In this document: positions 3,851 through 18,016 of the stretch, piece after piece
Layout: each line of letters opens with the position of its first letter
Position numbering within the stretch: the stretch's first letter is position 1
The notes under the pieces: generated by a model
Told to the model about the DNA's origin: nothing
Database searches by the model: none
Seen by the model: only the letters and a program-made list of their open reading frames with translations
Source of the DNA: a virus
Length of the DNA stretch: 26,899 nt
IMG/VR virus record: IMGVR_UViG_3300045988_046997
Coordinates: 1-26,899 of that record
Strand: one strand, 5' to 3'
Program-made: the position numbers and the translations under genes

Positions 3851-3851
3851 G

Positions 3852-4853: not shown

Positions 4854-4894
4854 GTTCTAGCTAGGTCGCAGTATGTTCTAGCAGAACAGATCGA

Positions 4895-4923
4895 GACCCC
4901 TCATCGCGAGGGGTCTTTTATTG
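4895..4923 (+). terminator. Rho-independent terminator T1 after the endolysin
   Basis: GACCCCTC-atcgc-GAGGGGTC: 8-bp GC-rich stem followed by TTTTATTG. Confidence 0.75.
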
Positions 4924-4933
4924 TCAAAAGTGT

Positions 4934-4962
4934 TTGCAATTGAAAACGTAATATGCTAAGAT
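4934..4962 (+). promoter_or_regulatory. Early promoter P1: -35 TTGCAA (4934-4939), 17-bp spacer, extended -10 TGcTAAGAT (4954-4962)
   Basis: Sigma70-like hexamers with exact 17-bp spacing. A GTTTGC half-site overlaps the -35 box. The same architecture recurs at P2 and P3. Confidence 0.7.
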
Positions 4963-4971
4963 TTTATTAAC

Positions 4972-4990
4972 GCAAACGGAAAGGGTTTGC
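4972..4990. promoter_or_regulatory. Inverted repeat GCAAAC-N7-GTTTGC just downstream of the P1 start site: putative operator or leader hairpin
   Basis: Perfect 6-bp arms. The same arrangement, GCAAAC-N6-GTTTGC, occurs downstream of P2. Confidence 0.5.
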
Positions 4991-5025
4991 GAAGAGCGCC
5001 CGTCATGGGCGGAAAGGCAGGGGAA

Positions 5026-5703
5026 ATGGAACCAACGAAGGAGGCTGAGCCCAGAAGCGTTTACGCGGTTCTCGCTGAGGTTCAGCATCGCGTGACGTGC
5101 AAGAAGGGTCGCGTGAACAAGTTCGGCGGCTACTCGTACCGATCGCTGGAGGACATCAACGCGGCGTTGAAGCCGCTGTGCCAAGAGCTGAGGTGCGGGT
5201 ACTTCTTCACCGACGAGATCGTGCCTATGAGCGTGGAGGGCGAGAGCAGATGGTACTTGAAAGCCACCGCGACGTTCTGGGCGGAAGACGCTTCCCAGAC
5301 CGTGAGCACGTCTGCGTTCGCGCGAGAGCAGGACTCGAAGAAGGGCATGGACGACGCTCAGGTGACCGGTCTTGCGTCGAGCTACGCGCGGAAGTACGCC
5401 TCTTGCGCCCTGTTCGCGATCGACTCAGGCGAAGAGGTGGACGCGATGGACAACGGGCAGAAACAGCGCGCTCGCAAGCAGGTAACGGCTGAGGCAAAGC
5501 AGGATCAGTCGGAAGAGCTTCTTACTCTGGTCGGTCAGTTCGCCGACATGAAAGGCAAGACTGCTGACGAGGTCATGCGAGCGTTGAACAAGAGCAACAC
5601 CATGAAGGGTCTGGGAGTTGCGGCCGATGCCGTCGAGTACGACGTGGAGCAGACTGCTGCTGCGATCGAACTGCTTAAATCATGGATCGCTAAATCGAAA
5701 TAA
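5026..5703 (+). CDS. erf: ERF-family single-strand annealing protein (recombinase)
   Basis: The ORF begins at 4987 with TTG. ATG 5026 is preferred because the conserved GAAAGGCAGG leader/RBS precedes it; ATG 5005 is an alternative. Motifs: VLAEVQ...KKG..N.FGGYSYRSLEDINAALKPL and ...GLASSYARKYASCALFAID. Confidence 0.8.
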   Translation: MEPTKEAEPRSVYAVLAEVQHRVTCKKGRVNKFGGYSYRSLEDINAALKPLCQELRCGYFFTDEIVPMSVEGESRWYLKATATFWAEDASQTVSTSAFAREQDSKKGMDDAQVTGLASSYARKYASCALFAIDSGEEVDAMDNGQKQRARKQVTAEAKQDQSEELLTLVGQFADMKGKTADEVMRALNKSNTMKGLGVAADAVEYDVEQTAAAIELLKSWIAKSK

Positions 5704-5714
5704 GGAGATAGAAC

Positions 5715-6107
5715 ATGCAAGGATTGAACACGGTGACTTTGGGCGGCAACCTGTGCAGGGACGCGGAACTCAGGATGGCGGCGAGCGGAACAGCCGTACT
5801 GTCGTTCAGCGTTGCGGTGAACGAGAGCGTGAAGGATCGTAACGGAGAGTGGAGCGATTACCCGAACTACATCGACTGCACGATGTTCGGTCGCCGCGCG
5901 GAGAGCGTCGCTCCGTACCTGACTAAGGGAGCGTACGTCGCGGTGGTCGGACGCTTGCATCAGAACCGCTGGAAGGCGCAGGACGGGCAGAACCGCTCGA
6001 AGGTCGAGGTATTAGTTGACAACGTGCACTTCGAGAGCAGGGCTGATCGCGCAGAGGCGGCGCATCAGCAGGGCGGCGCTCTGTACGACGAGGACATCCC
6101 GTTTTAA
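5715..6107 (+). CDS. ssb: Single-stranded DNA-binding protein
   Basis: 130 aa with an AAGGAGA RBS. OB-fold-like N-terminus followed by a Gln/Gly-rich linker and an acidic C-terminal tail YDEDIPF. Confidence 0.85.
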   Translation: MQGLNTVTLGGNLCRDAELRMAASGTAVLSFSVAVNESVKDRNGEWSDYPNYIDCTMFGRRAESVAPYLTKGAYVAVVGRLHQNRWKAQDGQNRSKVEVLVDNVHFESRADRAEAAHQQGGALYDEDIPF

Positions 6108-6114
6108 CGAAACT

Positions 6115-6144
6115 ATCCCCTGAGCGATCAGGGGATTTTCTTTC
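6115..6144 (+). terminator. Rho-independent terminator T2 after ssb
   Basis: ATCCCCTGA-gcga-TCAGGGGAT: 9-bp stem followed by TTTTCTTT. Confidence 0.8.
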
Positions 6145-6154
6145 GAAAAACTGT

Positions 6155-6183
6155 TTGCAATCAAAAACGTAACGTATTAAGAT
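6155..6183 (+). promoter_or_regulatory. Early promoter P2: -35 TTGCAA (6155-6160), 17-bp spacer, -10 TAAGAT (6178-6183)
   Basis: A paralogue of P1. A GTTTGC half-site overlaps the -35 box, and the spacer contains the shared AAAACGTAA. Confidence 0.7.
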
Positions 6184-6193
6184 GTTTACAGAG

Positions 6194-6211
6194 GCAAACG
6201 AAATGGTTTGC
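6194..6211. promoter_or_regulatory. Inverted repeat GCAAAC-N6-GTTTGC downstream of P2: putative operator or leader hairpin
   Basis: Perfect 6-bp arms at 6194-6199 and 6206-6211. Confidence 0.5.
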
Positions 6212-6234
6212 AAGGACAATGAAAGGCAGGAAAC

Positions 6235-6669
6235 ATGAACTTCACGAGCAAGTACGATGTAATCGAGTCTCTGCTGAAGACGTACGACGAGCTGGATCGT
6301 CTCAGGGCTGAGAACGAGCGCCTGAAGCGCGTCAACGCCGACATGAAGAGCATCGACAGCGTGGATGACGAGGAAGACCCGCGAGCGTACCAGAAGGCTC
6401 GGATCATGGAGTACGGGCGCAAGGAGATCATGAAGAACTCTACGAGCTACTGGGACAGCGTCATGGTGAAGCGTGGAGACGAAGGCCAGCTCATCGTTCA
6501 GGAGTTCGCGGACTGGCGCAAGGGAGTAATCAACAGAACCCCCGAGTTCATGAGCTGCGAGGACTTCTACGTACTGATGGACGCGGAGCTTCGAGAGACT
6601 TACGAGCTGCGCAAACTCGAGGCGATCGACAAGCTGGTCGAGTCGGAGCGCGAGTCCGATGGCGAGTAG
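6235..6669 (+). CDS. Hypothetical acidic coiled-coil protein, first gene of the P2 operon
   Basis: 144 aa. It is preceded by the conserved GAAAGGCAGGA RBS region. No family was recognised. Confidence 0.5.
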   Translation: MNFTSKYDVIESLLKTYDELDRLRAENERLKRVNADMKSIDSVDDEEDPRAYQKARIMEYGRKEIMKNSTSYWDSVMVKRGDEGQLIVQEFADWRKGVINRTPEFMSCEDFYVLMDAELRETYELRKLEAIDKLVESERESDGE

Positions 6670-7117
6670 CGCGTTCCGAGTGGCAGGTCAGGTCGTGGGG
6701 AAGCCACGACCACGCTTCAACAGAATGGGAACGAAGGTCAGGACTTACACGCCGAAGAACGGCGAGATGTTCGAGGAGCTGGTCAGGAATTCTTACATGG
6801 CTCAGTGCGGGGAGATGCACAATGGAGCCGTGAAAGTCGAGATCGCGTACCGACGAGTGCTGCCGAAGAGCCGACCGAAGAAGGTCGAGAGCGAGATTGA
6901 TCTGTTCAAGCCGGACGTGGACAACGTGGCGAAGGCGGTTCTGGACGCTCTGAACGGGGTAGCTTTCGAGGATGATAAGGACGTTGTGAGCTTGAAGGTC
7001 GAGAAGCTCCCGAGGGTCAGGATCGAGCAAGACGAGCTGTGCGTGATCGTCAGCGACGCAGACGACGAGGAGATGGAGGAACAGTGGCTACGCTTTACGA
7101 ACTCGACAAGGCTATAG
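6659..7117 (+). CDS. rusA: RusA-family Holliday-junction resolvase
   Basis: Motifs: ...VGKPRPRF... then ...LFKPDVDNVAKAVLDALNGVAFEDDKDV..., a typical RusA signature. Confidence 0.8.
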   Translation: MASSAFRVAGQVVGKPRPRFNRMGTKVRTYTPKNGEMFEELVRNSYMAQCGEMHNGAVKVEIAYRRVLPKSRPKKVESEIDLFKPDVDNVAKAVLDALNGVAFEDDKDVVSLKVEKLPRVRIEQDELCVIVSDADDEEMEEQWLRFTNSTRL

Positions 7118-7581
7118 AGCAGGTGATCGAGCACGGATTCTCATGGGACGAGGAGACGGGCGAGGTTCTGTTCGAGGAGTCTGATCTGGAGAGCCTTCAA
7201 GTGGCGCTCAGCGACAAGCTGGAGGCATGTGGCATCTGGATCAAGAACCAGAAGGCGCTGGCGGACGCTATCAAGGCGGAGGAGAAGGCTCTGAGCGACC
7301 GCAGGAAGTCGATCGAGAAGAGGCTGGAGAGGATGGACGGGTACGTGCTCCGATGCTTGATGAAAACGCCGAAGCAGAGCGTGGAAACGCCGATGGTCTC
7401 GCTGAAGACGAGGAAGTCGACGCGAACGATCATCGACGACGAGTCGGAGGTGCCCGAGGAGTTCACCGAGCATGTCGTCACCGTGAAAGTGAACAAGGCG
7501 GAGATCGGCAAGGCGCTCAAGGCGGGCCGAGAAGTGTCTGGCGCCCATCTGGAGACGAGCCAGAACTTGCAAGTGAAATGA
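7084..7581 (+). CDS. Siphovirus Gp157-like protein
   Basis: The ORF extends from 7039. The start is placed at GTG 7084, which has a GGAGGA RBS. The N-terminus (M)ATLYELDKAIEQ... and the ...EEKALSDRRKSIEKR... coiled coil resemble Gp157-family proteins. Confidence 0.6.
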   Translation: MATLYELDKAIEQVIEHGFSWDEETGEVLFEESDLESLQVALSDKLEACGIWIKNQKALADAIKAEEKALSDRRKSIEKRLERMDGYVLRCLMKTPKQSVETPMVSLKTRKSTRTIIDDESEVPEEFTEHVVTVKVNKAEIGKALKAGREVSGAHLETSQNLQVK

Positions 7582-7597
7582 CGGAAGGAGGCGCGAG

Positions 7598-8287
7598 TTG
7601 GCGGGAAAGCGGATGTTCTCGCGGGACGTCGTCGGCTCCGACGGCTTCGCGGATATGGGCTTCGAGGCTCAGGCGCTATACGTCCACCTGTCGATGGACG
7701 CTGACGACTGGGGTTTCGTAGGAGCTCCGAAGAGGGTTCAGCGCTCCATTGGATCTCGACAAGAGGCTCTGAGAGAGCTTGAGAAGTCGGGTTTCGTTCA
7801 TGTGTTCGAGAGCGGCGTTCTGGCTATCATGGACTGGTGGCAGAACAACACGATCACGGAGAGCAGGCGGAAGGCGACGCAATACGAGGCGGAGCTGGCG
7901 CAGCTGACGGTCACGGATTGCGGTTCCTACCAGCTCGTTTGCGAACCGCAAGCAAACTGCATGCAAAGTGCATGCGAAACGCCTGCTAGTTTAGATGAGG
8001 TTAGTTCAGTTAAATCTAGTTCAGATAAGAAGAAGCCCGCGCGTCATGCCTACGGCACGTACAAGAACGTCCTGTTATCCGATGAAGAGCTGGAGAAGCT
8101 GAAGACGGAGTTTCCGAGCGATTGGCAGGAGCGCATAGAGTCGATATCCACTTATTGCGCATCGAAGGGCAAGGCTTACCGAAACTATCTGGCGACGATC
8201 CGTGCATGGGCGAAACGCGACGGCAAGAAGGGAGGATCGAGAGATGCGGCTGTCTTCGATGCAATCGGCTTTTCAAACGGTGCTTGA
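7598..8287 (+). CDS. Replisome organiser / replication initiator with a DnaD-like C-terminal domain
   Basis: TTG start with a GGAAGGAGG RBS. The C-terminal ...AYRNYLATIRAWAKRDG... is DnaD/DnaB_2-like. An internal iteron + AT-rich element at 7935-8035 encodes the inter-domain linker. Confidence 0.6.
   Translation: MAGKRMFSRDVVGSDGFADMGFEAQALYVHLSMDADDWGFVGAPKRVQRSIGSRQEALRELEKSGFVHVFESGVLAIMDWWQNNTITESRRKATQYEAELAQLTVTDCGSYQLVCEPQANCMQSACETPASLDEVSSVKSSSDKKKPARHAYGTYKNVLLSDEELEKLKTEFPSDWQERIESISTYCASKGKAYRNYLATIRAWAKRDGKKGGSRDAAVFDAIGFSNGA
7935..8035. repeat. Putative origin element oriA inside the replisome-organiser gene
   Basis: Five 11-bp-spaced iterons (GTTTGCgaac, gCAAGCAAA, CTGCATGCAAA, GTGCATGCGAAA, GCCTGCtag) are followed by the AT-rich tagtttagatgaggttagttcagttaaatctagttcagataag. 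About 85 bp of this aligns with 21410-21492. Confidence 0.6.
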
Positions 8288-9077
8288 CGCGCACGAGTCT
8301 GATCCAGTCGGCGACGGGGTCTTCATCGCCGAGGACGGTCTCGCTCATTGCGAGAAGTGCGGCACTCCGATGCAGGTCATCATAACCGACCCGATGGGGA
8401 GGAAACGCACGATGCCGTGCGCCTGCAAATGCATGATCGAGGCTGAGGAACAGCGGAAGCTGGAGGATCAGCGCAGGCGATCCGAGGCGGCTAAGAGGTC
8501 GCGGGTCAGGGCGGCGTTCCCGTTCGAGTCGATGCGCGGGAAGACCTTCTCAGCCGATGACGGGAAGTTCGGCGCAGACCAGATGCGGAAGGCGAGGGCT
8601 TACGCCAAGCGGTTCGTGGAGACTGACGGGAAGATCGACTACGGTTTGCTTTTCTTCGGGAAGCCGGACAGCGGGAAGACGTTCTTGAGCTGCTGCATCG
8701 CAAACGAGGCTCTGGACGCTGGGAAGTCCGTCATCATGCGATCGATGCCGCAGTTGCTCGTCCAGCGCGACGACTCGATGCTCGGCAGGCTGCTCAGGTG
8801 CGACCTGCTCGTCATAGACGATCTGGGAGCCGAGCGCAGCACGTCGTACGGTCAAGAGTACGTCTACGCGGTCGTTGACGGAAGGTACAGCGCGAAGAAG
8901 CCGATGATCGTGTCAACGAACCTGACGCGCGAGGAGCTGGCGGCTCCAGCTGACATCATGTCGGCGAGGATCTACGGGAGAGTGCTGGAGGCTTGCCTGC
9001 CGATCGAGGTGGAGACGGGAAGGCGCAGGGCTACCCGAGACCGATACCGCGAAATAATGGACGACATGGGCGTGTAA
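8244..9077 (+). CDS. DnaC/IstB-like AAA+ helicase loader
   Basis: The ORF extends from 8202. The start is at ATG 8244, which has a GGGAGGA RBS. Walker A FFGKPDSGKTFL; Walker B LLVIDDLGAE. Confidence 0.8.
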   Translation: MRLSSMQSAFQTVLDAHESDPVGDGVFIAEDGLAHCEKCGTPMQVIITDPMGRKRTMPCACKCMIEAEEQRKLEDQRRRSEAAKRSRVRAAFPFESMRGKTFSADDGKFGADQMRKARAYAKRFVETDGKIDYGLLFFGKPDSGKTFLSCCIANEALDAGKSVIMRSMPQLLVQRDDSMLGRLLRCDLLVIDDLGAERSTSYGQEYVYAVVDGRYSAKKPMIVSTNLTREELAAPADIMSARIYGRVLEACLPIEVETGRRRATRDRYREIMDDMGV

Positions 9078-9078
9078 C

Positions 9079-9091
9079 GTGATATAATCAC
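9079..9091 (+). promoter_or_regulatory. Promoter of the XRE regulator: extended -10 TGaTATAAT embedded in the perfect palindrome GTGATATAATCAC
   Basis: TATAAT at 9083-9088 with TG two bp upstream. 13-bp palindrome spans 9079-9091. No good -35 box. Confidence 0.55.
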
Positions 9092-9124
9092 ATATAGAAA
9101 CAGTAACAAACGAGAGGGTAGCAG

Positions 9125-9310
9125 ATGAACGCAGAGGCGATCCGCGAGAAATGCGGGGAGATGGGGATCAGCCAGAACGAGCTGGCGCGACGTACTGGGG
9201 TATCGGTGGCTCACATGTCGAACGTCATGACGGGCAAGCGCGACGCGCGAGTCGGTCTGCTGAAGAAGATGTGCGAGCTGTTCGGAGTGAAGGCAGAGGA
9301 GATCTGGTAA
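9125..9310 (+). CDS. XRE-family helix-turn-helix transcriptional regulator (Cro/CI-like, 61 aa)
   Basis: ...ISQNELARRTGVSVAHMSNVMTGKR... is a canonical HTH_XRE motif. Confidence 0.8.
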   Translation: MNAEAIREKCGEMGISQNELARRTGVSVAHMSNVMTGKRDARVGLLKKMCELFGVKAEEIW

Positions 9311-9510
9311 TGAACGAGGGCAAGCGAGTGAAGATCGCCACGAGGCACGGAGTCCGTTACGGGGTGATCCACTATAGGCGCATCGAGCGCCGATCGTTGA
9401 ACCAGCTAATGGCAGAGCACCAGACGGCGACGGCGGTCGTCGGGATCCTGATCGTGTCGGCGTGCATCCTGCTCGGCGGTCTGGTCGAGGGCGCCAGAAT
9501 GGCTTTTTAA
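9310..9510 (+). CDS. Small membrane-anchored protein (66 aa)
   Basis: ATG overlaps the upstream TAA, with an AGGAGA RBS. Basic N-terminus and hydrophobic C-terminus TATAVVGILIVSACILLGGLV. Confidence 0.45.
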   Translation: MNEGKRVKIATRHGVRYGVIHYRRIERRSLNQLMAEHQTATAVVGILIVSACILLGGLVEGARMAF

Positions 9511-9615
9511 CGGTCTAGGATCGTCTGTGAGCCTCGAAACGCTTCTGAAGGCATGGTTTTACCTTGGAACGCGAAACAAGGCTTGCAAGGCGGCACGGCA
9601 ACGGAAAGGGAAGAC

Positions 9616-9855
9616 ATGGAAGAGTACGGAATGGGGTTCGCGGCGTGCGAGAAACCGCTCGGGACGAACGGTCGATATGAACGCTTGCTCGAGCAGTTCG
9701 AGGAAAGCGGCGACGAGTGCATTTGCTGCGGCTTCGAGGACGTGAAGAAGGCGAAGTCAGCCCAAGCGGCGATCAGCGCCATAGCGCGAAAGAAGCACGA
9801 GGGCATCAGATGCAGCCGCGAATGCTCGACGGTCTACATCTCGAAGGATTTGTAA
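9616..9855 (+). CDS. Small Cys-rich protein (79 aa), possible zinc ribbon
   Basis: Internal ATG preceded by GGAAAGGGAAG. Contains CICCGF...CSRECS. The ORF-track start at 9553 has no RBS. Confidence 0.4.
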   Translation: MEEYGMGFAACEKPLGTNGRYERLLEQFEESGDECICCGFEDVKKAKSAQAAISAIARKKHEGIRCSRECSTVYISKDL

Positions 9856-10274
9856 TGGCTGGAGTGGACACGCTGCCCGAGAACCTGAAGCCGCTCATGG
9901 ACGGAGTTTCCGTGAAGACCCCGTACTGCGCCGTTTGCGGGAGGTCGCGCCCGCTTAACCAGCACCACGTCGTGCGCAGGGGCGCGGGGAAGATTTTCAA
10001 GTTCGGCAAGGAGGTTGAGAAACCGACCGTCACGCTGTGCGGCTTCGGGAACAACCTAGCGGACGCGGACGGCAACGAGTACTGCCACGGGCTGGCGCAT
10101 GCGAACCGGCTCCACTTCCGATGGGTGAAGTCGAAGCAGCCGATCGACGAGTACAGCTGGATCAACGTCAACGGCGGTCATTGGGAGTACTTGAAGACGG
10201 ACGTTCCAACGAAGTACGCCGAGGCTCTGGAGATGGACGGCTGGAAACCGCTGCATCAGCAGTCTGAGTGGTGA
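9855..10274 (+). CDS. HNH endonuclease
   Basis: Start at ATG 9855 overlapping the upstream TAA. Motifs: ...CAVCGRSRPLNQHHVVRR... and ...CHGLAHANRLH.... Confidence 0.7.
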   Translation: MAGVDTLPENLKPLMDGVSVKTPYCAVCGRSRPLNQHHVVRRGAGKIFKFGKEVEKPTVTLCGFGNNLADADGNEYCHGLAHANRLHFRWVKSKQPIDEYSWINVNGGHWEYLKTDVPTKYAEALEMDGWKPLHQQSEW

Positions 10275-10279
10275 AGGGT

Positions 10280-10316
10280 ACCCGCCAGACCAAGAAGGTC
10301 GGCGGGTATTTCTTTC
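10280..10316 (+). terminator. Rho-independent terminator T3 after the HNH gene
   Basis: CCCGCC(a)GAC-caagaag-GTCGGCGGG stem followed by TATTTCTTT. Confidence 0.7.
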
Positions 10317-10334
10317 GGAAAACCTTGAATATTT

Positions 10335-10365
10335 GTTTGCAAACGTGAATGAATCATGCTAAGAT
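10335..10365 (+). promoter_or_regulatory. Middle promoter P3: -35 TTGCAA (10337-10342) inside the perfect palindrome GTTTGCAAAC (10335-10344), 17-bp spacer, extended -10 TGcTAAGAT (10357-10365)
   Basis: Hexamers and 17-bp spacing read directly. The operator-like palindrome overlaps the -35 box. Confidence 0.7.
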
Positions 10366-10366
10366 T

Positions 10367-10405
10367 AGGTCACACCGAAAGGGAAACACCGAACGAAAGG
10401 CAGGA
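10367..10405 (+). promoter_or_regulatory. Conserved 39-nt leader AGGTCACACCGAAAGGGAAACACCGAACGAAAGGCAGGA, identical to 17212-17250
   Basis: Exact identity between the two copies. Contains the tandem ACACCGAA and an AGGA Shine-Dalgarno 4 nt before the ATG. Confidence 0.7.
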
Positions 10406-10409
10406 CACA

Positions 10410-10640
10410 ATGGCAAGCAGGAAACAGACCACCGCAGAGCGTTTCGGCATCGAGAAGCGCGTCTTCGCCGCGAAGATCTGCTACTGCGACATCGAGGACA
10501 ACGGCAAGCAGGCAGGCGCGACGGTCGATTACAAGTCCCTTGCAGCCGCGTACAAGCGTTGCAGCAAGGACATCGCGAACGGCTTGGCGCTGTCTCTTCA
10601 CGCGCTCACAGCCGACGGCTGGGTCGAATGCGGAGCTTGA
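10410..10640 (+). CDS. Hypothetical protein (76 aa)
   Basis: ATG directly after the conserved leader. The ORF-track start at 10356 lies inside the promoter. Confidence 0.45.
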   Translation: MASRKQTTAERFGIEKRVFAAKICYCDIEDNGKQAGATVDYKSLAAAYKRCSKDIANGLALSLHALTADGWVECGA

Positions 10641-10652
10641 TAGAGGGGGCGG

Positions 10653-10898
10653 TTGGAGATGAGGTCTTACAAAGAGCTCGCGGAGATGACGGGAACCACG
10701 GTCGATGAAGTGCGAGCGATGATGCGATCAGCGCGTAAGGTGCACAAGCAGCGCTGCGTCAAACCAGTCGAGTATGAGCTGTACGCGGTTTGGTGCGTTG
10801 GCATCTCGGGAACCGGTTGCATCGGCAGCGGCAGCACCCGAGAAGAGGCGGTTATATACGCGCTCGAGAACAACGTTCAGTTCGCGGCGTTTCTTTAA
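10653..10898 (+). CDS. Hypothetical small protein with an HTH-like N-terminus
   Basis: TTG at 10653 with a GAGGGGG RBS; ATG at 10659 is an alternative. ...SYKELAEMTGTTVDEVRAMMRSARK. Confidence 0.4.
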   Translation: MEMRSYKELAEMTGTTVDEVRAMMRSARKVHKQRCVKPVEYELYAVWCVGISGTGCIGSGSTREEAVIYALENNVQFAAFL

Positions 10899-10910
10899 TG
10901 AGGTTCGGCA

Positions 10911-11147
10911 ATGGCATACCCGATGAACGTTGACGAGTTCAACCTGCGTTTCATAACTGGTAATAACACATGGTTGACCCTTGAGGTCGATGATACGGGT
11001 CACTGCATCGACTACATCGTGACGTACATGGAGGAAGGCTTTCCGCCTGAACGCACGACGTTCCGCGATCAGCCGAACGCGAAGAGGGTGTTCGCATTCA
11101 TGTTGTACAAGCTCTACGAGGTTTTGGCTAAAAAGGAGGAAGAATGA
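10911..11147 (+). CDS. Hypothetical protein (78 aa)
   Basis: ORF ending in an ATGA overlap with the dUTPase start. No family recognised. Confidence 0.4.
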   Translation: MAYPMNVDEFNLRFITGNNTWLTLEVDDTGHCIDYIVTYMEEGFPPERTTFRDQPNAKRVFAFMLYKLYEVLAKKEEE

Positions 11148-11572
11148 TAGGCAGGAAGCTCCACGTCGTACTCGACGGGGAAGTCCCGACGTACGCCCAC
11201 GAGGGAGACGCTGGGTTGGATCTGAGGGCAGCGGAGAGCGTGACGGTGCCAGCCGGTGGATCGGCGCTCGTGCGCACTGGCGTTCGGGTGGAGATCCCGA
11301 GCGGTTGCGTCGGTCTGGTGTTCCCGAGGTCTGGTCTGGGGTCGAAGGGCATCACGTTGCGAAACGCCGTCGGAGTGATCGACTCGGGGTACCGTGGCGA
11401 GGTCATGGCGGCGCTGTGGAACACAACGGGTGACGAGTTCGAGTGCGAGAAGGGCGACCGCATCTGCCAGATGGTCGTCATGCCGTACGTTCCTTGTCAG
11501 GTCGTGATCGTTGAAGAACTGTCGGACACCGAGCGAGGGTCTGACGGTCACGGATCGACGGGGGTCAAGTGA
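11144..11572 (+). CDS. dut: dUTP diphosphatase (dUTPase)
   Basis: AAGGAGGAAGA RBS. Motifs: AGLDLRA, PRSGLG, GVIDSGYRGEV, GDRICQ and C-terminal ...GSDGHGSTG. Confidence 0.85.
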   Translation: MIGRKLHVVLDGEVPTYAHEGDAGLDLRAAESVTVPAGGSALVRTGVRVEIPSGCVGLVFPRSGLGSKGITLRNAVGVIDSGYRGEVMAALWNTTGDEFECEKGDRICQMVVMPYVPCQVVIVEELSDTERGSDGHGSTGVK

Positions 11573-12009
11573 TGAGGAACCCGAGCGTTTACGAGCTGGT
11601 GGAATGGGACACGGGGAGGGTATTGATCCACGGAACGAAAAGCTACATTGCTGATCAGCTCGGGTTGTCGCTTTACTCAGTGGACACGATCATCAGCCAC
11701 GCGAGGAAGGGCATCGGGGCGACGAGGGTCGCGTTCTTCGATCCAGCGATCCACTACCGCGCGTCAAACGGCGATCAGGTCATCGAGGGCACGTGCGACG
11801 AGATAAGCAAGGCGATCGATAGAACACGGTTCTCGGTCATGACGGCGGCGCAGAAAGGGTACGTGACCACGAACGGGTGGAGGATCGAAGAGGTTGAGCC
11901 AGAGTGCTGGTGTGCGTTCGGTGTTCGCAAACGATACAACGACGCTGTGTCGAGGCTGAAAAGCGCGACGCGCCGTGGCAAGGTAAAACGATCTAAGGAG
12001 AGCAGATGA
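11572..12009 (+). CDS. Hypothetical protein, possibly a DNA-binding regulator
   Basis: ATG overlaps the dut TGA. ...SYIADQLGLSLYSVDTIISHARKG... is HTH-like. The C-terminus is basic. Confidence 0.45.
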   Translation: MRNPSVYELVEWDTGRVLIHGTKSYIADQLGLSLYSVDTIISHARKGIGATRVAFFDPAIHYRASNGDQVIEGTCDEISKAIDRTRFSVMTAAQKGYVTTNGWRIEEVEPECWCAFGVRKRYNDAVSRLKSATRRGKVKRSKESR

Positions 12010-12707
12010 AGGTTCGCGTGATTAGAGCAACGACGAGCCCGATGCACGCAATCAGCGAAGAGGCTGGGATATGTTACGGCAAAACTGACTACAACCCGAA
12101 GCGAGTGGAGCGTTGTCTGAGGAACGGTCACACGAGCGTCGCCGAGCACGTTTCCGCGTCGTTCCGCATCGAGGGAATCAGCCGATCCTGTTTGGCGCAG
12201 CGTATGCGGAATGAAATCCACTTCATGCGCCTCAACCGAGAGTGGTATGAATCCGAGGACAGTACGGTCGAGTGTGGCAACCGTGCGTTCAGGGACATAG
12301 CGAACGCCGTAATCCCCTATAGCCATTTTGGCAATAATTACATCGAAATCGTTGAACGCATTGCAGACCTCATCGAGCCGCAATTGATCGACGGCGAGAC
12401 ATCGGACGGCTACCACACGTTTAACGAGCTCTACCATCATCGAGCCGTGCTGTTCTCGGTGATCGTGTCGAGCTTCAGCGATCGAGCTTGGAAGTCTAAG
12501 CTGCACGCTGATGGCACCATGTACGACGGAATGTTCATCGTCGGCATCGAGACTCCAGACGGGCAAGCGACGTACCATTACGACGTAGAGCCTTACTGGG
12601 ATCTGTTCCGATGCAAGGAGGTTGACCGTGCGCCGGAGTGGGACGGGCACACACCCGGCCAAGCCATTGAGCGAATCGGCAAGCTTGCTGAGAATGCAGT
12701 AAAATAA
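12006..12707 (+). CDS. Divergent ThyX-like (flavin-dependent thymidylate synthase fold) protein with an altered signature motif
   Basis: AGGAGAG RBS. The N-terminus ...CLRNGHTSVAEHVSASFRIEGISRSCLAQRMRNEIHFMRLNREWY aligns with the ThyX segment ...[40 protein letters not shown]. The RHR-X7-S motif is replaced by RMR..H.... Confidence 0.45.
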   Translation: MKVRVIRATTSPMHAISEEAGICYGKTDYNPKRVERCLRNGHTSVAEHVSASFRIEGISRSCLAQRMRNEIHFMRLNREWYESEDSTVECGNRAFRDIANAVIPYSHFGNNYIEIVERIADLIEPQLIDGETSDGYHTFNELYHHRAVLFSVIVSSFSDRAWKSKLHADGTMYDGMFIVGIETPDGQATYHYDVEPYWDLFRCKEVDRAPEWDGHTPGQAIERIGKLAENAVK

Positions 12708-12817
12708 TGACGAAGATAAGCAAGATCTGCGAATCAGCAAAGATGGTCGCAGGGTTGATTCTCTTTTTCGTGTTTGCTTTCGCGCTGGCGATTGCGCTTC
12801 AGGCGATGCTCGGTTAG
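12707..12817 (+). CDS. Possible small membrane protein (36 aa), below the ORF-track threshold
   Basis: ATG shares its A with the upstream TAA. It encodes MTKISKICESAKMVAGLILFFVFAFALAIALQAMLG and ends at TAG 12815-12817. The RBS is weak. Confidence 0.3.
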   Translation: MTKISKICESAKMVAGLILFFVFAFALAIALQAMLG

Positions 12818-12844
12818 GTTCGATTCTCTGGGGGTCGAGAAGTT

Positions 12845-13318
12845 TTGGAGAAGGACAAGGAGAAACACGCAGGGGGACAGCCGACGAAGTACGTTGAGAG
12901 CGTCCACGTGCCGTGGGGCGTGTCCCTTGCGCGTCGAGGATGCACTGACGAGGAGATAGCGGAGGCGTTCGGGGTCAGCACCAGAACCGTTTACCGCTGG
13001 AAGAACGCGCATCCCGAGTTCTGTCACGCCATAAGCGAGACGAAGAGCCAAGCCGATGAGAGAGTCGTCGAGGGTCTTTACAAGCGCGCGTGCGGCATGA
13101 TCGTCGTGAACAAGACGGAGAGCGTAACGGAGCGCGACGGCGTGAAGACGAAGAAGACCGAGAAGGTAACGAAGGAGCTTCCGCCAGACTCCGTGGCGGC
13201 TATGTTCTGGCTGAAGAACAGGCAGCCGACGCTTTGGAGCGACAACCCTGCGGAGCAGACGCGAACCGCGTCAGACGAGGCTATCAAGGACGCGATCAGG
13301 AATGCGGGTCTGAGCTGA
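12845..13318 (+). CDS. terS: Terminase small subunit
   Basis: TTG start. HTH ...CTDEEIAEAFGVSTRTVYRWKNAHPEF... and ...AAMFWLKNRQPTLWSDN..., typical of TerS. Located directly upstream of TerL. Confidence 0.7.
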   Translation: MEKDKEKHAGGQPTKYVESVHVPWGVSLARRGCTDEEIAEAFGVSTRTVYRWKNAHPEFCHAISETKSQADERVVEGLYKRACGMIVVNKTESVTERDGVKTKKTEKVTKELPPDSVAAMFWLKNRQPTLWSDNPAEQTRTASDEAIKDAIRNAGLS

Positions 13319-14538
13319 TGCTGAGCGAGAAGCAGCGCCTTCTCGCGACGTGGTGGAGCGAAGGCGGGGAGTTTGCAGACAAAGACGGGGTCATAGCAGA
13401 TGGAGCAGTGCGCAGCGGCAAGACGTACGCGCTGGTCATTGGGTTCCTGCTTTGGTCGCAGCTCAGGTTTTCTGGTGAGTCGTTCATAATCGCAGGCCGC
13501 ACGATGGGAGCGTTGAAGCGAAACGTGGTGGCTCCGATGCTACAGGTCATACGCGATTTCGGTTGGCCTTGCCACTACAACCGCAACGAGGGCGTTATAA
13601 CGATCGCGAGCAACATGTACCACCTGTTCGGCGCAAACAACGAACAGAGTCAGGACAAGATCCAAGGCATGACGGCGGCGGGTTGCCTTCTAAACGAGGT
13701 GGCGCTCATGCCGCGCTCGTTCGTGGATCAGGCACTCGCCCGCTGCTCCGTGTCCGGTGCGAAGTTCTGGTGGGACTGCAACCCGAGTTACCCAGCGCAC
13801 TTCGTTAAAGCTGACTTCATCGACAAGGCTCAGGAACGCAACCTGTTCAGATTGAAGTTCACGATGGACGACAACCCGACTTTGGCTCCCGATGCTCGGG
13901 CAAGGTACGAGCGGCTTTACTCCGGCGTGTTCTACGACCGTTACGTTAGAGGCTTGTGGGTAGTCGCGGAGGGTCTGGTCTATCAGGACTTCAAGGAGTC
14001 GGAGATGTGTGCGGAGCTGTCGGATGAAGACATCAAGAAGGCGGCGCACGTGGTGTCCATCGACTACGGCATCACGAACCCGTTCGCGGCTATAGATTGG
14101 GTCGTCAAAGACGGCGTGGCGTACGCGGTGGACGAGTATTACTTCGATTCTAAAGACGAAGAGTTCCGCCGAACCGACGAGGAGCATTACGAGGCGCTGA
14201 AGAAGTGGATCGGCAAGAGATACGTCGAGCTGGTGGTCATCGACCCGTCCGCCTCTTCGTTCATCGAGTGCATGGCGCGCCACGGCGAGTGGGAGTTCAG
14301 AGGCGCGGACAACTCGGTCATAGACGGCATCAGCAACACCATGACGGCCATGAAGCAGCAAGGTCTTCTCATAGGAAAGAAGTGCAAGCACCTGCTTCAA
14401 GAACTCGGTCTGTATAGATGGGACGAGAAGAAGAAGCACGAGGCCGTGGTAAAGGAGAACGACCACGCTTGCGACGCCATGAGGTACTTCGTTCAAACGG
14501 TCGGCGTGAACGAGCTTTCATGTTTTGACTGGGAGTGA
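13318..14538 (+). CDS. terL: Terminase large subunit
   Basis: The ORF track extends to 13090. The start is at ATG 13318 overlapping the terS TGA. Walker A DGAVRSGKTYAL; the nuclease-half acidic motifs follow. Confidence 0.85.
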   Translation: MLSEKQRLLATWWSEGGEFADKDGVIADGAVRSGKTYALVIGFLLWSQLRFSGESFIIAGRTMGALKRNVVAPMLQVIRDFGWPCHYNRNEGVITIASNMYHLFGANNEQSQDKIQGMTAAGCLLNEVALMPRSFVDQALARCSVSGAKFWWDCNPSYPAHFVKADFIDKAQERNLFRLKFTMDDNPTLAPDARARYERLYSGVFYDRYVRGLWVVAEGLVYQDFKESEMCAELSDEDIKKAAHVVSIDYGITNPFAAIDWVVKDGVAYAVDEYYFDSKDEEFRRTDEEHYEALKKWIGKRYVELVVIDPSASSFIECMARHGEWEFRGADNSVIDGISNTMTAMKQQGLLIGKKCKHLLQELGLYRWDEKKKHEAVVKENDHACDAMRYFVQTVGVNELSCFDWE

Positions 14539-14574
14539 CGTATAATCTTCGAAGCGAAGAGATTGGAGAACCGA

Positions 14575-15978
14575 ATGGGATTGTTCGACGCGATGCTCGA
14601 CATGCTGGCAGCCGTTCTGGGCAAGAGGATCCAAGGGCACGACCAGCTGGCGGCGTACCGAGACAGCGGCAAGAAGGGAACAGAATACTCCGTGGAGAGC
14701 ATGGTCAGCGAGTCGCTCGCGAACCTGATGATGCTCGACTTCACGATGCCGATCGAGGGCGAGTCCGCAAGGGCGAGGATGCTCGACGGAACGTCGGACT
14801 CGTTCGTGCGAGACACGCTGTGCAACGCGGTGTCTATGGGCTTCCTCACCGGAGACAGCGTCACGGTGCCGAGTTGGAACGGTCGCACGATGGACAACGT
14901 GCTGGTTGACGCCGGAAGCTTCGCGATCCTAGGCGCGAACGGTCACGAGATAACGTCGATGATCTACGTCGTGGACGAGAAGCGGTTCAATCACGGCTCG
15001 ACTTACACGCTTCTAAGGCTCATCGAGCTTGTGCCGTACACCGCTCAGGACGGCACGCAGACGCACGCGAACCGGTATAAAACCTTCATCGCGAAGGACG
15101 GCACCATCACGGACATCCCGCTGAGCGAGTTCCCCGACTGGGCGGCGACCAATGAGGATGAGTGGGTCATCCCGAACGTCGATCGCCTGCTTATCGGTCG
15201 TTACCGCAGCTTCACGCTGAACCCGCTGAACCCGAACGCGCAGAAGGGAACGCCGATCTGCTTCGGAGCGTCCGCGCCGATCAGGGAGATACACTATTTG
15301 ACGGCGCAGATGCACGAGGAGTTCGGTCTGAGCGAGAAGGCGATCATCGCCGACAAGACGCTCTTTAAGAAGGAGCTGCTGCGAGACGGCGAGGGAAACG
15401 TTGTCAGCCAGAAGCTCGTCCTGCCAAAGGGTCGCGAACGGCTCTTCATGAACGTCGGCAACCGAGGGACTTCCGGAGCTCCGCTCATCCAAGAGTGGGC
15501 TCCGACGATCCAGCTGCAACCGTACGTGGACGCTCTGGAGAAGCAGTATCAAGAGGTCGAGAAGTGCGTCGGCGTGTCCTCGGGCATCCTGAGCAACCTG
15601 AACGACCAGAGCTATCAGAACGTGGACAACGTCCGCAAGAGCACGATCAAGACGCAGAGCTTCGTCAACACCGCCCGCAAAGTGTGCGAGAGCTACCTCG
15701 AGGACATGGTCTACGCTTGGAACGCCATAGCTAATTTCTATGGCTTGACCCCCGTCGGCGACTTCCACGTCGAGTACAAGTGGTCGGACGACTACATCAA
15801 CACGTTTAGCGACCAGCAGAACGCGATCCTCGCTGGCGATGCTATCGGGGCGACGGATGCCGTGGACTACCGCATGTTCGTCATGGGCGAGAGCCCCGAG
15901 GTTGCAAGGGAGCGAGTTGCGGCGATCAAGGCTGAGAAGGGCGACGAACTCGCGGCGTTCGAGGAGATCAGGGTCTAA
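14575..15978 (+). CDS. Portal protein
   Basis: 467 aa with a GGAGAA RBS. Position directly after TerL and size are typical. No motif-level check was possible. Confidence 0.6.
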   Translation: MGLFDAMLDMLAAVLGKRIQGHDQLAAYRDSGKKGTEYSVESMVSESLANLMMLDFTMPIEGESARARMLDGTSDSFVRDTLCNAVSMGFLTGDSVTVPSWNGRTMDNVLVDAGSFAILGANGHEITSMIYVVDEKRFNHGSTYTLLRLIELVPYTAQDGTQTHANRYKTFIAKDGTITDIPLSEFPDWAATNEDEWVIPNVDRLLIGRYRSFTLNPLNPNAQKGTPICFGASAPIREIHYLTAQMHEEFGLSEKAIIADKTLFKKELLRDGEGNVVSQKLVLPKGRERLFMNVGNRGTSGAPLIQEWAPTIQLQPYVDALEKQYQEVEKCVGVSSGILSNLNDQSYQNVDNVRKSTIKTQSFVNTARKVCESYLEDMVYAWNAIANFYGLTPVGDFHVEYKWSDDYINTFSDQQNAILAGDAIGATDAVDYRMFVMGESPEVARERVAAIKAEKGDELAAFEEIRV

Positions 15979-17120
15979 TGGACGCGGCGGACATCGAGTA
16001 CCAAGAGAAGGAACAGAACATCGTGGAGGAGGACGGCATGGCTGTTGAGCTTGCCGTCCTCTCCGTCATTGCGGCTAGGCTCGCGATGATCGACGATAAG
16101 ACCACTTACGCGACGGTCAGGGCGTGGCAGGTCGAGGACATGGCGACCATCTCGCGGCTGCTGTCCGCTGGCGCGAAGATGATCAGCGGCAGGTCTGACA
16201 GGATCATAGACAAGATGGGCGAGTCCTCAGACGAGTGGGCTAAGCCGTTCTTCGAGGCTCGCGGCATCGAGCAGAGGTCGGTGTTTGACGACGAGTTCGC
16301 GGCTGCGGCGATGGACGCTGGGAAGGCGAAGAACGCGAAGAACGTCGCTTCGATGTGCAGGACTTCAGTTATAGGCCTTGTGGCTCCAGACGGATCGGTG
16401 AACCGGATAAGCGAGACGTACCGGAAGCTCATGGACTCCGCGATCAGGGCGATCATGCGGAGCGAGGAGGACTACAACAGCGCGATCGAACGTGCGGTGC
16501 GCAAGCTCTCCAAGGGCGGTCTGAGGGTGAAGTACCCGAGCGGGGCGACCCGCGAGATGTACGCAGCCGTCTCCATGAACGTGATGGACGGTTTCAGGCT
16601 CACGATGCAGGACGTGCGCGACCAGCAGGCGCAGAGGTTCGGGGCGGACGGCGTGGAGGTCTCGGCTCATGGCATGTGCGCAGAAGATCATCTTCCGTAT
16701 CAAGGCAGGCAGTACACGAAGGCGGAGTTCGAGCGCATCCAGAAGAAGCTAGAGAGACCGATAGGCGAGGGCATGAACTGCCGCCACATGGTCTCTGGCG
16801 TGGTTCTGGGCGTTTCGAGCAACGCGTACGGCGAGAAGCAGCGCAGGCAGATGGCGAGGGAGTCCCGCAGGAAGACGGGGGTCGAGAATGCAGACGGGCA
16901 CGACATGACGGCGTACGAGTTCACGCAGTGGCAGAGGCGGCAGGAGACCGATATACGCAAGCTGAAGGCGCAGGCGAGGGTTCACGAGAAGGCTGGGCTC
17001 GATCCGAAGGAGTTCGAGGCGGAGGCCGCGCGGAAGAGAAAGCAATACGTCGAGCTGTCGAAGAAGGCGGGAGTTGAGACGCGGCTGGAGAGAACGAAAG
17101 TCTACGAGTGGAAGCTCTAG
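15978..17120 (+). CDS. Head morphogenesis protein (SPP1 gp7 / Mu F-like minor capsid protein)
   Basis: ATG overlaps the portal TAA. ...HGMCAEDHLPYQGRQYTKAEFERIQKK...GEGMNCRHM... resembles the Mu-F/gp7 C-terminal signature. Position after the portal fits. Confidence 0.55.
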   Translation: MDAADIEYQEKEQNIVEEDGMAVELAVLSVIAARLAMIDDKTTYATVRAWQVEDMATISRLLSAGAKMISGRSDRIIDKMGESSDEWAKPFFEARGIEQRSVFDDEFAAAAMDAGKAKNAKNVASMCRTSVIGLVAPDGSVNRISETYRKLMDSAIRAIMRSEEDYNSAIERAVRKLSKGGLRVKYPSGATREMYAAVSMNVMDGFRLTMQDVRDQQAQRFGADGVEVSAHGMCAEDHLPYQGRQYTKAEFERIQKKLERPIGEGMNCRHMVSGVVLGVSSNAYGEKQRRQMARESRRKTGVENADGHDMTAYEFTQWQRRQETDIRKLKAQARVHEKAGLDPKEFEAEAARKRKQYVELSKKAGVETRLERTKVYEWKL

Positions 17121-17122
17121 GG

Positions 17123-17149
17123 AAAACCCGCAGGTCAGCGGGTTTTTTC
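17123..17149 (+). terminator. Rho-independent terminator T4 after the packaging/morphogenesis operon
   Basis: AACCCGC-aggtca-GCGGGTT stem followed by TTTTTCATTC. Confidence 0.75.
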
Positions 17150-17181
17150 ATTCATGTATGAAATAATATAAGCATTACCGT

Positions 17182-17210
17182 TTACAAACAGAAACAAGCA
17201 ATACTATAAT
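17182..17210 (+). promoter_or_regulatory. Promoter P4: -35 TTACAA (17182-17187), 17-bp spacer, -10 TATAAT (17205-17210)
   Basis: Consensus-like hexamers. The upstream GTTTACAAAC is a near-palindrome related to the P3 operator. The 39-nt leader at 17212-17250, identical to the P3 leader, follows. Confidence 0.7.
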
Positions 17211-17211
17211 G

Positions 17212-17250
17212 AGGTCACACCGAAAGGGAAACACCGAACGAAAGGCAGGA
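17212..17250 (+). promoter_or_regulatory. Second copy of the conserved 39-nt leader, identical to 10367-10405
   Basis: Exact sequence identity. Confidence 0.7.
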
Positions 17251-17254
17251 TGAA

Positions 17255-17440
17255 ATGAACGAGAAGAAGCAGGAACTCTTCAACGAGATGATCGAAGCAG
17301 CCACAGCCTACATGAACACCAACACGTTCGAGAACGCAAAATACTGCTCAGTCCGCAAGGCGACCGAGGCTTACGCGGAGTTCAGCGGCATCAGCTACGA
17401 GCAAGCCGCGAATATCGCGCTCGAGACGATCAAGCGCTAG
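17255..17440 (+). CDS. Hypothetical small helical protein (61 aa), moron gene 1
   Basis: ATG 4 nt after the AGGA of the conserved leader. Confidence 0.45.
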   Translation: MNEKKQELFNEMIEAATAYMNTNTFENAKYCSVRKATEAYAEFSGISYEQAANIALETIKR

Positions 17441-17466
17441 GAAGGCAGGAGCAAACGAAGGACTTT

Positions 17467-17673
17467 ATGAGCAGCGACCGCTTCATGAAGGCGGTCAACG
17501 GCTACGAGAAGTACGAGTGCATGGGCGAGTTCAAGTGGTTCGACGAGCAGTCAAGGGCGCTCGCTGACGAGGTGTTCGAGGAAACCCGGATCCTCATTGA
17601 AGAGATCGCGAGAGAGAACGGCGTGCTTTACAACGACGTGCTCGATGCGGTTCGCAAGGTTTCGCGCTACTAG
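17467..17673 (+). CDS. Hypothetical small acidic protein (68 aa), moron gene 2
   Basis: Preceded by GAAGGCAGGAGCAAACGAAGG. Confidence 0.45.
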   Translation: MSSDRFMKAVNGYEKYECMGEFKWFDEQSRALADEVFEETRILIEEIARENGVLYNDVLDAVRKVSRY

Positions 17674-17686
17674 GAAGGAGCAAGAA

Positions 17687-18016
17687 ATGGCAAAGGAGCA
17701 TGATGGGCGTTTCGGCAAGTTGTACTCGGCATGGGCGTACGACGAGAACGAGGACGCGATGAGGGACGCGAACGCGAGGGTTTACCACGATCTTAGGGCA
17801 GCGGTAAGTATCAATCCGCGCAACACGGACGATGCGAAGGGGAAGGATGAACTCGTTTACGAGAACAGTGCGACAGGGTACGCGCACAGGAGCTTCATGG
17901 TGAAGGCAAAGCCAGAGTGGATGACGATGGCGGAAGCCGCGCTGGTGATCGACATGGGGAGCCTGTGCTTCGGGTTCCAGACGATGGGCAACGTCGTTAC
18001 CATCTTCACGGACTAG
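17687..18016 (+). CDS. Hypothetical protein (109 aa), moron gene 3
   Basis: Internal ATG with a GGAAGGAG RBS. The ORF-track start at 17597 overlaps the previous gene without an RBS. Confidence 0.45.
   Translation: MAKEHDGRFGKLYSAWAYDENEDAMRDANARVYHDLRAAVSINPRNTDDAKGKDELVYENSATGYAHRSFMVKAKPEWMTMAEAALVIDMGSLCFGFQTMGNVVTIFTD

Follow-up and report, generated by a model that had tools for sequence, protein, structure and literature searches.

RsaE/RoxS and RNAIII of Firmicutes are trans-acting small RNAs that mask Shine-Dalgarno (SD) sequences with C/U-rich loops. Bacteriophage T4 controls its early genes post-transcriptionally through RegA and RegB, the effectors being a repressor protein and an endoribonuclease, and the CI RNA of phage P4 is an antisense immunity RNA. 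Here we analyse a virus genome of 26,899 nucleotides (IMG/VR record IMGVR_UViG_3300045988_046997, positions 1 to 26,899; this whole stretch is called the window below), in which a 10-nt motif, GAAAGGCAGG, stands immediately ahead of the first start codon of four transcription units, and in which one hairpin (3239-3262) carries the complement of the motif in its loop. Coordinates are those of the window, and features lie on its plus strand, unless stated otherwise.

Elements of a similar kind are the start-associated sequences (SAS) of cluster K mycobacteriophages, 13-bp asymmetric motifs located 3-7 bp before the ATG of a subset of genes, which contain an SD core and are conserved beyond it; they all point the same way apart from one reverse copy, which K1 phages carry away from any gene start (PMC3203893). 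SAS are often joined to a promoter-containing extended SAS (ESAS), which consists of two 17-bp imperfect inverted repeats (PMC11373665). Their role was called unknown in 2024 (PMC11373665) and again in 2025 (PMC12699233). Two systems of temperate phages are also relevant: the c4 RNA of P1/P7, an antisense immunity RNA that acts at several sites (PMC12197685), and the stoperators of L5, which are DNA sites for the phage repressor (PMC3203893). Actinobacterial and Gram-positive cases are absent from a 2025 review of small RNAs in phages.

A leader motif and a hairpin with its complement

The exact motif occurs four times in the window, always on the plus strand (5012, 6221, 10395 and 17240) and always 4-5 nt before an ATG, which bears out a preliminary description of this DNA that had placed such a motif close to the start codon in four leaders. 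When one mismatch is allowed, there are 10 matches against 2.0 expected, a number reached in none of 100 shuffles. Five of the eight plus-strand copies of AAGGCAGG lie no more than 20 nt upstream of a start codon (binomial P ~4e-6). A further site, GGAAGGCAGGA (GGAAGGCAGG at 17440), precedes the second gene of the unit driven by promoter P4 (17440-17469, ATG at 17467), and matches the hairpin loop region over 11 nt, more than any other site. In none of the four leader folds is the motif base-paired.

The motif reads as a Gram-positive-type SD sequence, GAAAGGAGG (GAAAGG-AGG), with one inserted C, and most internal genes of the window use canonical GGAGG sites. We fetched relatives of the phage from IMG/VR and from metagenomes; among those whose minor head protein is 46-77% identical, each genome shows GAAAGGCAGG, 4-7 nt and an ATG in succession at 2-6 operon starts. 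Outside the motif their leaders are unrelated, being CA-rich and unstructured in one clade and containing two hairpins in another, and the exact 19-mer of the leader has no match in IMG/VR. Since the motif is kept while the leader bodies differ, and since other genes use GGAGG, it is a selected functional element and not merely inherited. Like SAS, it is asymmetric, multi-copy, of one orientation, near starts and conserved beyond the SD core across related phages, where it precedes different genes. Binding of the leaders by a CsrA-type protein was considered and dropped, because the first GAAAGG-like element of leader 2 has no GGA, and an unusual anti-SD of the host was judged unlikely given the GGAGG sites of most genes.

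The complement of the motif lies in a 112-nt gap between an XkdX-like open reading frame (ORF) and the lysis cassette. The hairpin found there has a 7-bp stem, GCUGCGG/CCGCAGC, and a 10-nt loop, UUCCUGCCUU (3246-3255), which is complementary to AAGGCAGGAA and is the exact complement of GAAAGGCAGG; complementarity between leaders and loop spans 8-11 nt. The reverse complement of the motif, CCTGCCTT, has a single plus-strand copy, at 3248. An extended -10 box, TGCTAAGAT (3224-3232), identical to the boxes at promoters P1 and P3 and preceded by a weak -35, ends 6 nt upstream of the hairpin; we call this candidate promoter P0. Directly downstream is a second hairpin of 10+4 bp (3263-3303), terminator-like, with a U tract that is weak in the window genome. 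The 71-nt stretch folds at -34.8 kcal/mol (z -5.5). Rfam 15 gave no match at gathering score anywhere in the window, and in 3150-3350 only a chance match (E = 0.38).

Every relative for which the corresponding region was retrieved has this arrangement. Among nine distinct sequences from two clades the loop CCTGCCTT is invariant and the inner 7-bp stem is 100% paired, with five of the seven pairs changed on both sides. Neither the covariation score nor the paired fraction was reached in any of 500 shuffles, and slid registers collapsed. An extended -10 box stands immediately upstream of the hairpin in every lineage examined, although the position in the genome differs between the clades. Genomes of the closer clade have the hairpin at the equivalent place, with a clear terminator next and then a TGCTATAAT promoter that serves the lysis genes. 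In the distant clade the hairpin follows the stop codon of the major-capsid gene, downstream of TGTATAAT or TGTACAAT and of a first hairpin of unrelated sequence, and has a 13-bp stem with a loop again of 10 nt. The hairpins of the two clades have only the loop in common; if they are not homologous, the common loop is a convergence, which would be a stronger argument for function. The same promoter and hairpin were also seen in a short contig of a different phage background (L064, 865-945), which also carries an endolysin gene whose product is 92% identical.

A change of both partners is found in the Eggerthella phage PMBT5 (L050; 51% G+C), the nearest cultured relative. Its leader motif is different, CGAAAGGAAC: (C)GAAAGGAAC is found 3-6 nt ahead of an ATG at five plus-strand sites of PMBT5, where 0.26 would be expected, and a sixth copy has the form GAAAGGAA. 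The complement of this motif, GTTCCTTTC, is also single-copy (22470-22478 of PMBT5) and lies in the homologous gap between a tail protein gene and the lysis cassette, flanked upstream by TTGCAA-17-TGCGATAAT and downstream by a strong terminator, GCCCCUGC/GCGGGGGC-UUUU; the region folds at -30.2 kcal/mol (z -4.7). A 97%-identical relative retains CAUGGUUCCUUUCGG and differs in the first loop, in the terminator loop and in the upstream DNA. In the window clades AAGGCAGG is thus matched by CCUGCCUU and in PMBT5 GAAAGGAAC by GUUCCUUUC, each complement being single-copy. Because in PMBT5 both partners are changed and the one complement sits in the homologous gap, motif and complement have switched together between the lineages, which amounts to one independent switch. 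No third motif/complement pair was found in L047 or L003.

Two other features of the PMBT5 tail/lysis gap were noted. Just upstream of the anti-leader unit lies a second promoter-hairpin-terminator unit (22267-22345 of PMBT5; TGCTATAAT, GUGAGGU/ACCUCAU, GAGCCGGC/GCCGGCUC-UUUU), the single-stranded part of which is not complementary to the PMBT5 leader motif. At 22511-22523 a TATAAT box ends 4 nt ahead of the ATG of the first lysis-cassette gene, which suggests a leaderless mRNA; leaderless mRNAs are common in Actinomycetota. The genome paper of PMBT5 makes no mention of promoters, terminators, small RNAs or other regulatory elements.

We compared the predicted pairing of the leaders with the loop and with a 16S rRNA 3' tail, for which a generic textbook sequence was used that may not be that of this host. 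The leaders bind the loop at -16.0 to -17.6 kcal/mol and the generic tail at -11.8 to -14.1. Canonical sites, in contrast, favour the 16S tail: a consensus construct gave -15.6 kcal/mol with the tail and -10.5 with the loop, the major-capsid site -12.2 and -11.4, and the SSB site -8.2 and -6.8, respectively. With leaders favouring the loop and canonical sites the tail, the extra C/G pair would make the interaction selective. In a genome-wide duplex scan all five motif sites were within the top 12 of 26.9k windows scanned, and the four largest gains on cofolding were those of gene 17467, P3, P4 and P2. The P3 and P4 leaders contain, in addition, ACACCG, complementary to CGGUGU just 3' of the hairpin. 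Ranking targets by energy was meant as a decisive test and was not decisive, given the coding sites with G.U pairs and the overlap of P1 with controls discussed below. The thermodynamics agree with an antisense model and are not proof of it.

A predicted antisense mechanism and its alternatives

We lean towards the reading that the leader motif is a start-associated ribosome-binding site (RBS) motif targeted by a phage antisense RNA, and that this RNA-RNA interaction is functional. The argument is computational throughout and draws on sequence, structure, conservation, covariation of the stem and one trans-covariation event; from these we infer transcription of the RNA, pairing in vivo and the direction of the effect. 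In the gap that separates the XkdX-like gene from the lysis genes, the extended -10 promoter at 3224 would give rise to an RNA of ~65 nt; alternatively, the same hairpin would be carried on longer late transcripts. The first hairpin of the RNA would show UUCCUGCCUU in its 10-nt loop and pair with AAGGCAGGAA, covering the RBS of the first cistron in each unit and of gene 17467, and so compete with binding of the 30S subunit. One RNA would in this way coordinate translation of the Erf, replication, packaging and head units, and the extra C/G pair would let it discriminate the motif leaders from ordinary GGAGG sites. Such an RNA would supply coordinate or temporal control that is otherwise missing, since the main promoters look constitutive and no phage sigma factor or activator was recognised among the annotated genes of the window. 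The effect is most likely repression, as masking of an RBS normally represses; activation or stabilisation is possible.

Several observations weigh against this reading. The second hairpin of the window, whose U tract is weak, was not called as a terminator, and the hairpin element may be only a part of longer late or lysis transcripts; P0, the RNA ends and the RNA abundance are predictions. Coding sites with G.U pairs score like the leaders, so that the thermodynamics are not specific, and the cofold gain of P1 (-6.7) overlaps that of controls (-2.8 to -7.7). In PMBT5 no loop holds the seed, which falls in a single-stranded linker and in the 3' half of stem one. The loop of L064 is UUUCUGCUUU, with two C-to-U changes that would still be able to wobble-pair with G. 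Relatives of the L007/L008 type have the hairpin but only one matching leader per genome, over 7 nt (AAGGCAG); this box lies a few bases upstream of a separate canonical SD, the leader reading CCAAGGCAGAUGAAAGGAGCC (L008 16364-16458, L007 15656-15850, L015 about 6339), from which it follows that pairing box and SD can be separate. Finally, a pyrimidine-rich complement of an SD-like motif could serve other roles.

The simplest alternative is that promoter modules were duplicated together with a favoured, efficient RBS, GAAAGGCAGG, and that the hairpin serves termination or stability, its complementarity being without function. The modules are indeed clearly paralogous, GAAAGG pairs with the 16S tail, the motif is predicted to bind the generic anti-SD at -12 to -14 kcal/mol, and high duplex scores are not unique to the leaders. 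The motif sites also follow non-coding gaps, where translational coupling is impossible; yet genes after other gaps (18818, 19805) have canonical sites, which this explanation does not account for. It leaves the invariant C unexplained as well, because GAAAGGAGG would bind better, and it offers no reason why two clades, with the hairpin at different places in the genome, should keep the loop unchanged while its stem covaries, nor why motif and complement changed jointly in PMBT5. We therefore consider it unlikely. Somewhat harder to sustain is recognition of the motif by a protein, either as RNA, by a RegA-like repressor or a RegB-like nuclease, or as DNA, in the manner of L5 stoperators, the reverse copy being one more site. 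The motif is asymmetric, multi-copy and orientation-biased, as stoperators are; PMC3203893 takes up the contrast between them. Moreover, the genome encodes a small Cro/C1-type helix-turn-helix (HTH) protein with its own promoter, and a concerted change of all PMBT5 copies would be expected after a shift in protein specificity too. However, the distance to the ATG is fixed at 4-5 nt despite leaders of ~30 to 60 nt, which argues for a role in translation and not in transcription; a covarying stem always encloses the reverse copy and a promoter precedes it, neither of which a DNA operator needs; and no RNA-binding protein family was recognised among the small genes of the window.

It is also conceivable, and in our estimate improbable, that the hairpin acts in cis as part of long transcripts, namely the late tail-lysis mRNA in the window clade or the 3' end of the capsid mRNA in the distant clade, with pairing within or between mRNAs serving, for example, stability or processing. 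The weak terminator of the window would fit, as would the distant-clade hairpin, which immediately follows the major-capsid stop codon, precedes the SD of the next gene and lacks a clear terminator. The extended -10 box conserved immediately upstream in every lineage speaks against it, and so do the clear terminators that follow the hairpin in the closer relatives and in PMBT5.

The RNA proposed in the antisense reading resembles RsaE/RoxS and RNAIII in its unpaired pyrimidine-rich loop seed, in having several mRNA targets at the RBS, in its predicted shortness and in a candidate terminator hairpin. It differs from them in being encoded by a lytic-type phage with the phage's own operon leaders as predicted targets, in that these targets share a dedicated non-canonical motif instead of generic G-rich SDs, and in having no sequence or Rfam relationship to those RNAs. 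With c4 and P4 CI it shares small phage RNA loops that pair with short boxes on phage mRNAs, and the c4 pairing blocks an RBS. Those RNAs, however, serve lysogenic immunity, are processed from the target transcript and act on one operon, whereas the window phage has no lysogeny genes that we could see and four to six separate target units. T4 RegA/RegB likewise exert global control of many phage mRNAs through a short RBS motif, but with protein effectors; the only conserved candidate effector of the window phage is an RNA. L5 stoperators are similar as multi-copy, asymmetric, orientation-biased, short intergenic sites (PMC3203893), and they differ in that they are DNA sites for a repressor and are not known to keep a fixed distance to the start codon or to have a hairpin-displayed reverse copy.

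Transcription units, genome and host

The four exact motif copies belong to four modules, each made of a terminator, a promoter and a leader, and the modules are present as the preliminary description had them, judged by sequence, hairpin z-scores and motif copies. Terminator T1 (4893-4923; 10-bp stem and U tract; -19.9 kcal/mol, z -5.4) follows the endolysin gene, T2 (6115-6144; -19.3 kcal/mol, z -5.1) the SSB gene, T3 (10280-10316; -24.1 kcal/mol, z -4.5) the HNH endonuclease gene and T4 (17120-17152; -18.2 kcal/mol, z -5.3) the minor head protein gene. The four hairpins thus range from -18 to -24 kcal/mol, with z -4.5 to -5.4 against shuffles. A fifth, T5 (19759-19786; from its hairpin fold), comes after the major head protein gene and closes the P4 unit. 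All five have the marks of intrinsic terminators, that is, z -3.5 to -5.4, U tracts and a position 20-90 nt past a stop codon.

The promoters, recognised by sequence pattern, are P1 (4934-4962; TTGCAA-17-TGC TAAGAT), P2 (6155-6183; TTGCAA-17-TAAGAT), P3 (10337-10365; TTGCAA-17-TGC TAAGAT) and P4 (17181-17210; TTTACA-18-TATAAT, or TTACAA-17). The pattern TTGCAA-17-TAAGAT occurs exactly three times in the genome (4934, 6155 and 10337). The hexamers and spacing of P1-P4 are those of sigma-70/sigma-A promoters. A uniform 17-bp spacing, claimed earlier, holds for P1-P3 and for P4 if the latter is read as TTACAA; P4 is, however, better read as TTTACA-18-TATAAT, with 11 of 12 consensus positions. The TGC ahead of the -10 box is indeed limited to P1 and P3 among P1-P4, and the -10 boxes are TAAGAT three times and TATAAT once, as described. 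Overall, a generic consensus scan for promoters and terminators was not enriched over shuffles, and the weight therefore rests on the repeated specific pattern.

Leader 1 (4969-5028) has two 5' hairpins, then the unpaired motif (5012-5021) and the ATG of Erf (5026). Leader 2 (6190-6237) has a 5' hairpin, GCAAAC/GTTTGC, that is common to the P1 and P2 leaders, with the motif at 6221-6230 and the ATG at 6235. Leader 3 (10372-10412) is U-free and unstructured (motif 10395-10404, ATG 10410), and leader 4 (17217-17257; motif 17240-17249, ATG 17255) opens the scaffold/major-capsid unit. From the base after the -10 box through the motif, 39 nt are identical between leaders 3 and 4; over 78 nt the P3 and P4 modules share 79% identity, and the P1, P2 and P3 promoters are 76-79% identical over 33 nt. 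The proposed paralogy of the modules was confirmed in a multiple alignment and recovered by a blind repeat search. The idea that operons were built by copy-and-paste is supported in so far as the modules are related in sequence, but in relatives the leader bodies differ completely while GAAAGGCAGG at the ATG stays, and this key feature is not explained by such copying.

The modules probably mark transcription-unit boundaries, each comprising an intrinsic terminator, a host sigma-A-type promoter and a short 5' untranslated region, and from their sequences P1-P4 look like strong constitutive promoters of host type. In silico they fall at functional boundaries between lysis, Erf-SSB, replication, dUTPase-terminase-portal-minor head and head genes. 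Two parts of the earlier picture did not hold. P4 does not drive a three-gene moron, since its unit contains three small genes, the scaffold and the major head protein and ends at T5; and the four cassettes do not by themselves partition the genome, as the genome has no fewer than four more promoter-like sites and two more terminator-like hairpins. Extended -10 boxes (TGnTAnnAT) in non-coding DNA lie at 3224, 9080, 21442 and 22791. The terminator-promoter cassettes are in themselves ordinary; the motif with its putative antisense partner is the new part.

The box at 22791 belongs to a degenerate fifth cassette (22791-22860) ahead of the tail-chaperone gene. It consists of TGGTAGAAT, a 13-bp hairpin that starts a few bases further on (22801-22830) with U6, and the motif variant GAAAGGTAGG (22843-22852), 5 nt ahead of the ATG at 22858. 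This cassette is kept in L004, L005 and L038, and its counterpart in the distant clade (clade B; L011, 15921) has the exact GAAAGGCAGG. The promoter-hairpin part (22791-22836) would yield an RNA of only ~35 nt, or might serve as an attenuator. The box at 9080 is part of Px (9061-9127), a promoter-like site, ACGACA-16-TGATATAAT, with a CA-rich leader that lacks GAAAGGCAGG; it comes directly after the DnaC-like gene, with no terminator between, and precedes the gene of the Cro/C1-type HTH protein (61 aa; Pfam HTH_3, E = 5e-11; region 9061-9310). At 21442-21492 an extended -10 box, TGCTAGTAT, stands right after a repeat array and is followed by 3.8 tandem copies of TAGTTTAGGT and a gene at 21506; this site may be a regulated late promoter. 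The array is one of two formed by 11-bp repeats of the CTGCATGCAAA type, at 7929-8029 within the gene of the DnaD-like organiser and at 21260-21487 in the non-coding gap between head-tail and tail genes, with a 101-nt stretch 81% identical between them. Phage SPP1 has two origins with iterons, oriL and oriR, and by analogy the two arrays of the window look like replication origins.

Bases 1-127 are repeated at 26773-26899, an assembly overlap, and because of this terminal duplication the window represents a complete circular or permuted genome of ~26.8 kb from a circular assembly. All plausible genes are on the plus strand. Functions assigned by PHROG and Pfam annotation give the order minor tail and fibre-like proteins (12-2536), an ORF of 38 aa (3096-3212), an XhlA-like protein, holin and endolysin (3325-4853), Erf and SSB (5026-6107), RusA, DnaD-like organiser, DnaC-like loader, Cro/C1-type HTH and HNH (6235-10274), small genes, dUTPase, small and large terminase, portal and minor head protein (10410-17120), three small genes, scaffold (18170-18802) and major head protein (18818-19669) in 17255-19669, and connector and tail genes through tape measure and Dit (19805-26760). 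The ORF at 3096-3212, for which Pfam gave no match, we take to be XkdX-like from the sequence pattern of that family. No integrase or other lysogeny gene was seen in the PHROG and Pfam annotation of the window.

We found no nucleotide match for 14 kb of the window among 50,697 phage records, and a profile search of genome contigs with the minor-head alignment gave no prophage relatives. The portal is 51% identical to that of PMBT5, homologues of the endolysin carry the host names Eggerthella, Gordonibacter and Arabiibacter, and the relatives derive from human-gut metagenomes; these three observations together point to a host in the Eggerthellaceae (Actinomycetota). The endolysin failed as an anchor for finding relatives, its homologues lying in unrelated temperate phages (L051-L053). 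By its gene content and relatives the phage is, we conclude, a small lytic-type siphovirus of gut Eggerthellaceae.

Relation to SAS and implications

Our element and SAS have in common an SD core with extended conservation, a short distance to the ATG, an orientation bias and a single reverse copy, as well as an upstream promoter-containing module and hosts among the Actinomycetota. They differ in consensus, which is GGGATAGGAGCCC for SAS as opposed to GAAAGGCAGG in the window and CGAAAGGAAC in PMBT5. SAS are confined to the non-structural arm, whereas the packaging and head units of the window also carry the motif, and the window has no 17-bp inverted repeats of the ESAS type, its upstream inverted repeats being terminator stems. 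The window element thus appears to be of the same kind as SAS without belonging to the same sequence family.

The likeness extends to the reverse copy. In phage Anaya (L054) it occupies 34862-34889 of that genome, within 385 bp of non-coding DNA close to the right end, and reads GCGCGG[CCUCCUAUCC]CCGCGC, a hairpin of 6-bp stem and 10-nt loop that is set in a longer helix. In the K1 phages Anaya, Adephagia, Shaobing and Biglebops (L054, L055, L056 and L059) the reverse SAS copy is found in the apical loop, of 10-11 nt, of a conserved hairpin in a non-coding gap near the right genome end, which in Adephagia is the gap between gp92 and gp93, and all 16 predicted pairs are maintained in the sequences checked, with one double change. 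This loop geometry is the same as that of the anti-leader hairpin of the window. No reverse copy was found in the fetched region of six phages of K3, K5 and K6 type, and any generalisation to SAS is accordingly limited to K1-type phages.

A phage-wide leader motif with a conserved, co-varying antisense partner has not been described for any gut-Actinomycetota phage. We suggest, tentatively, that it acts as a private RBS code, in which the whole expression programme of a lytic-type phage would be run by one RNA hairpin that addresses operon-first cistrons with a bulged SD and leaves ordinary RBSs untouched; the same logic might explain the SAS of cluster K and might be a general scheme in phages of Actinomycetota. 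This offers a testable answer to the role of SAS in cluster K mycobacteriophages, a question that has stood since 2011, and tests are feasible because both PMBT5 and phages of cluster K are in culture. A pairing that proves real would supply engineers of Eggerthella, a gut genus of medical relevance in which genetic manipulation is difficult, with a ready-made orthogonal RBS/antisense pair, and would give a minimal 27-kb phage a simple post-transcriptional master switch.

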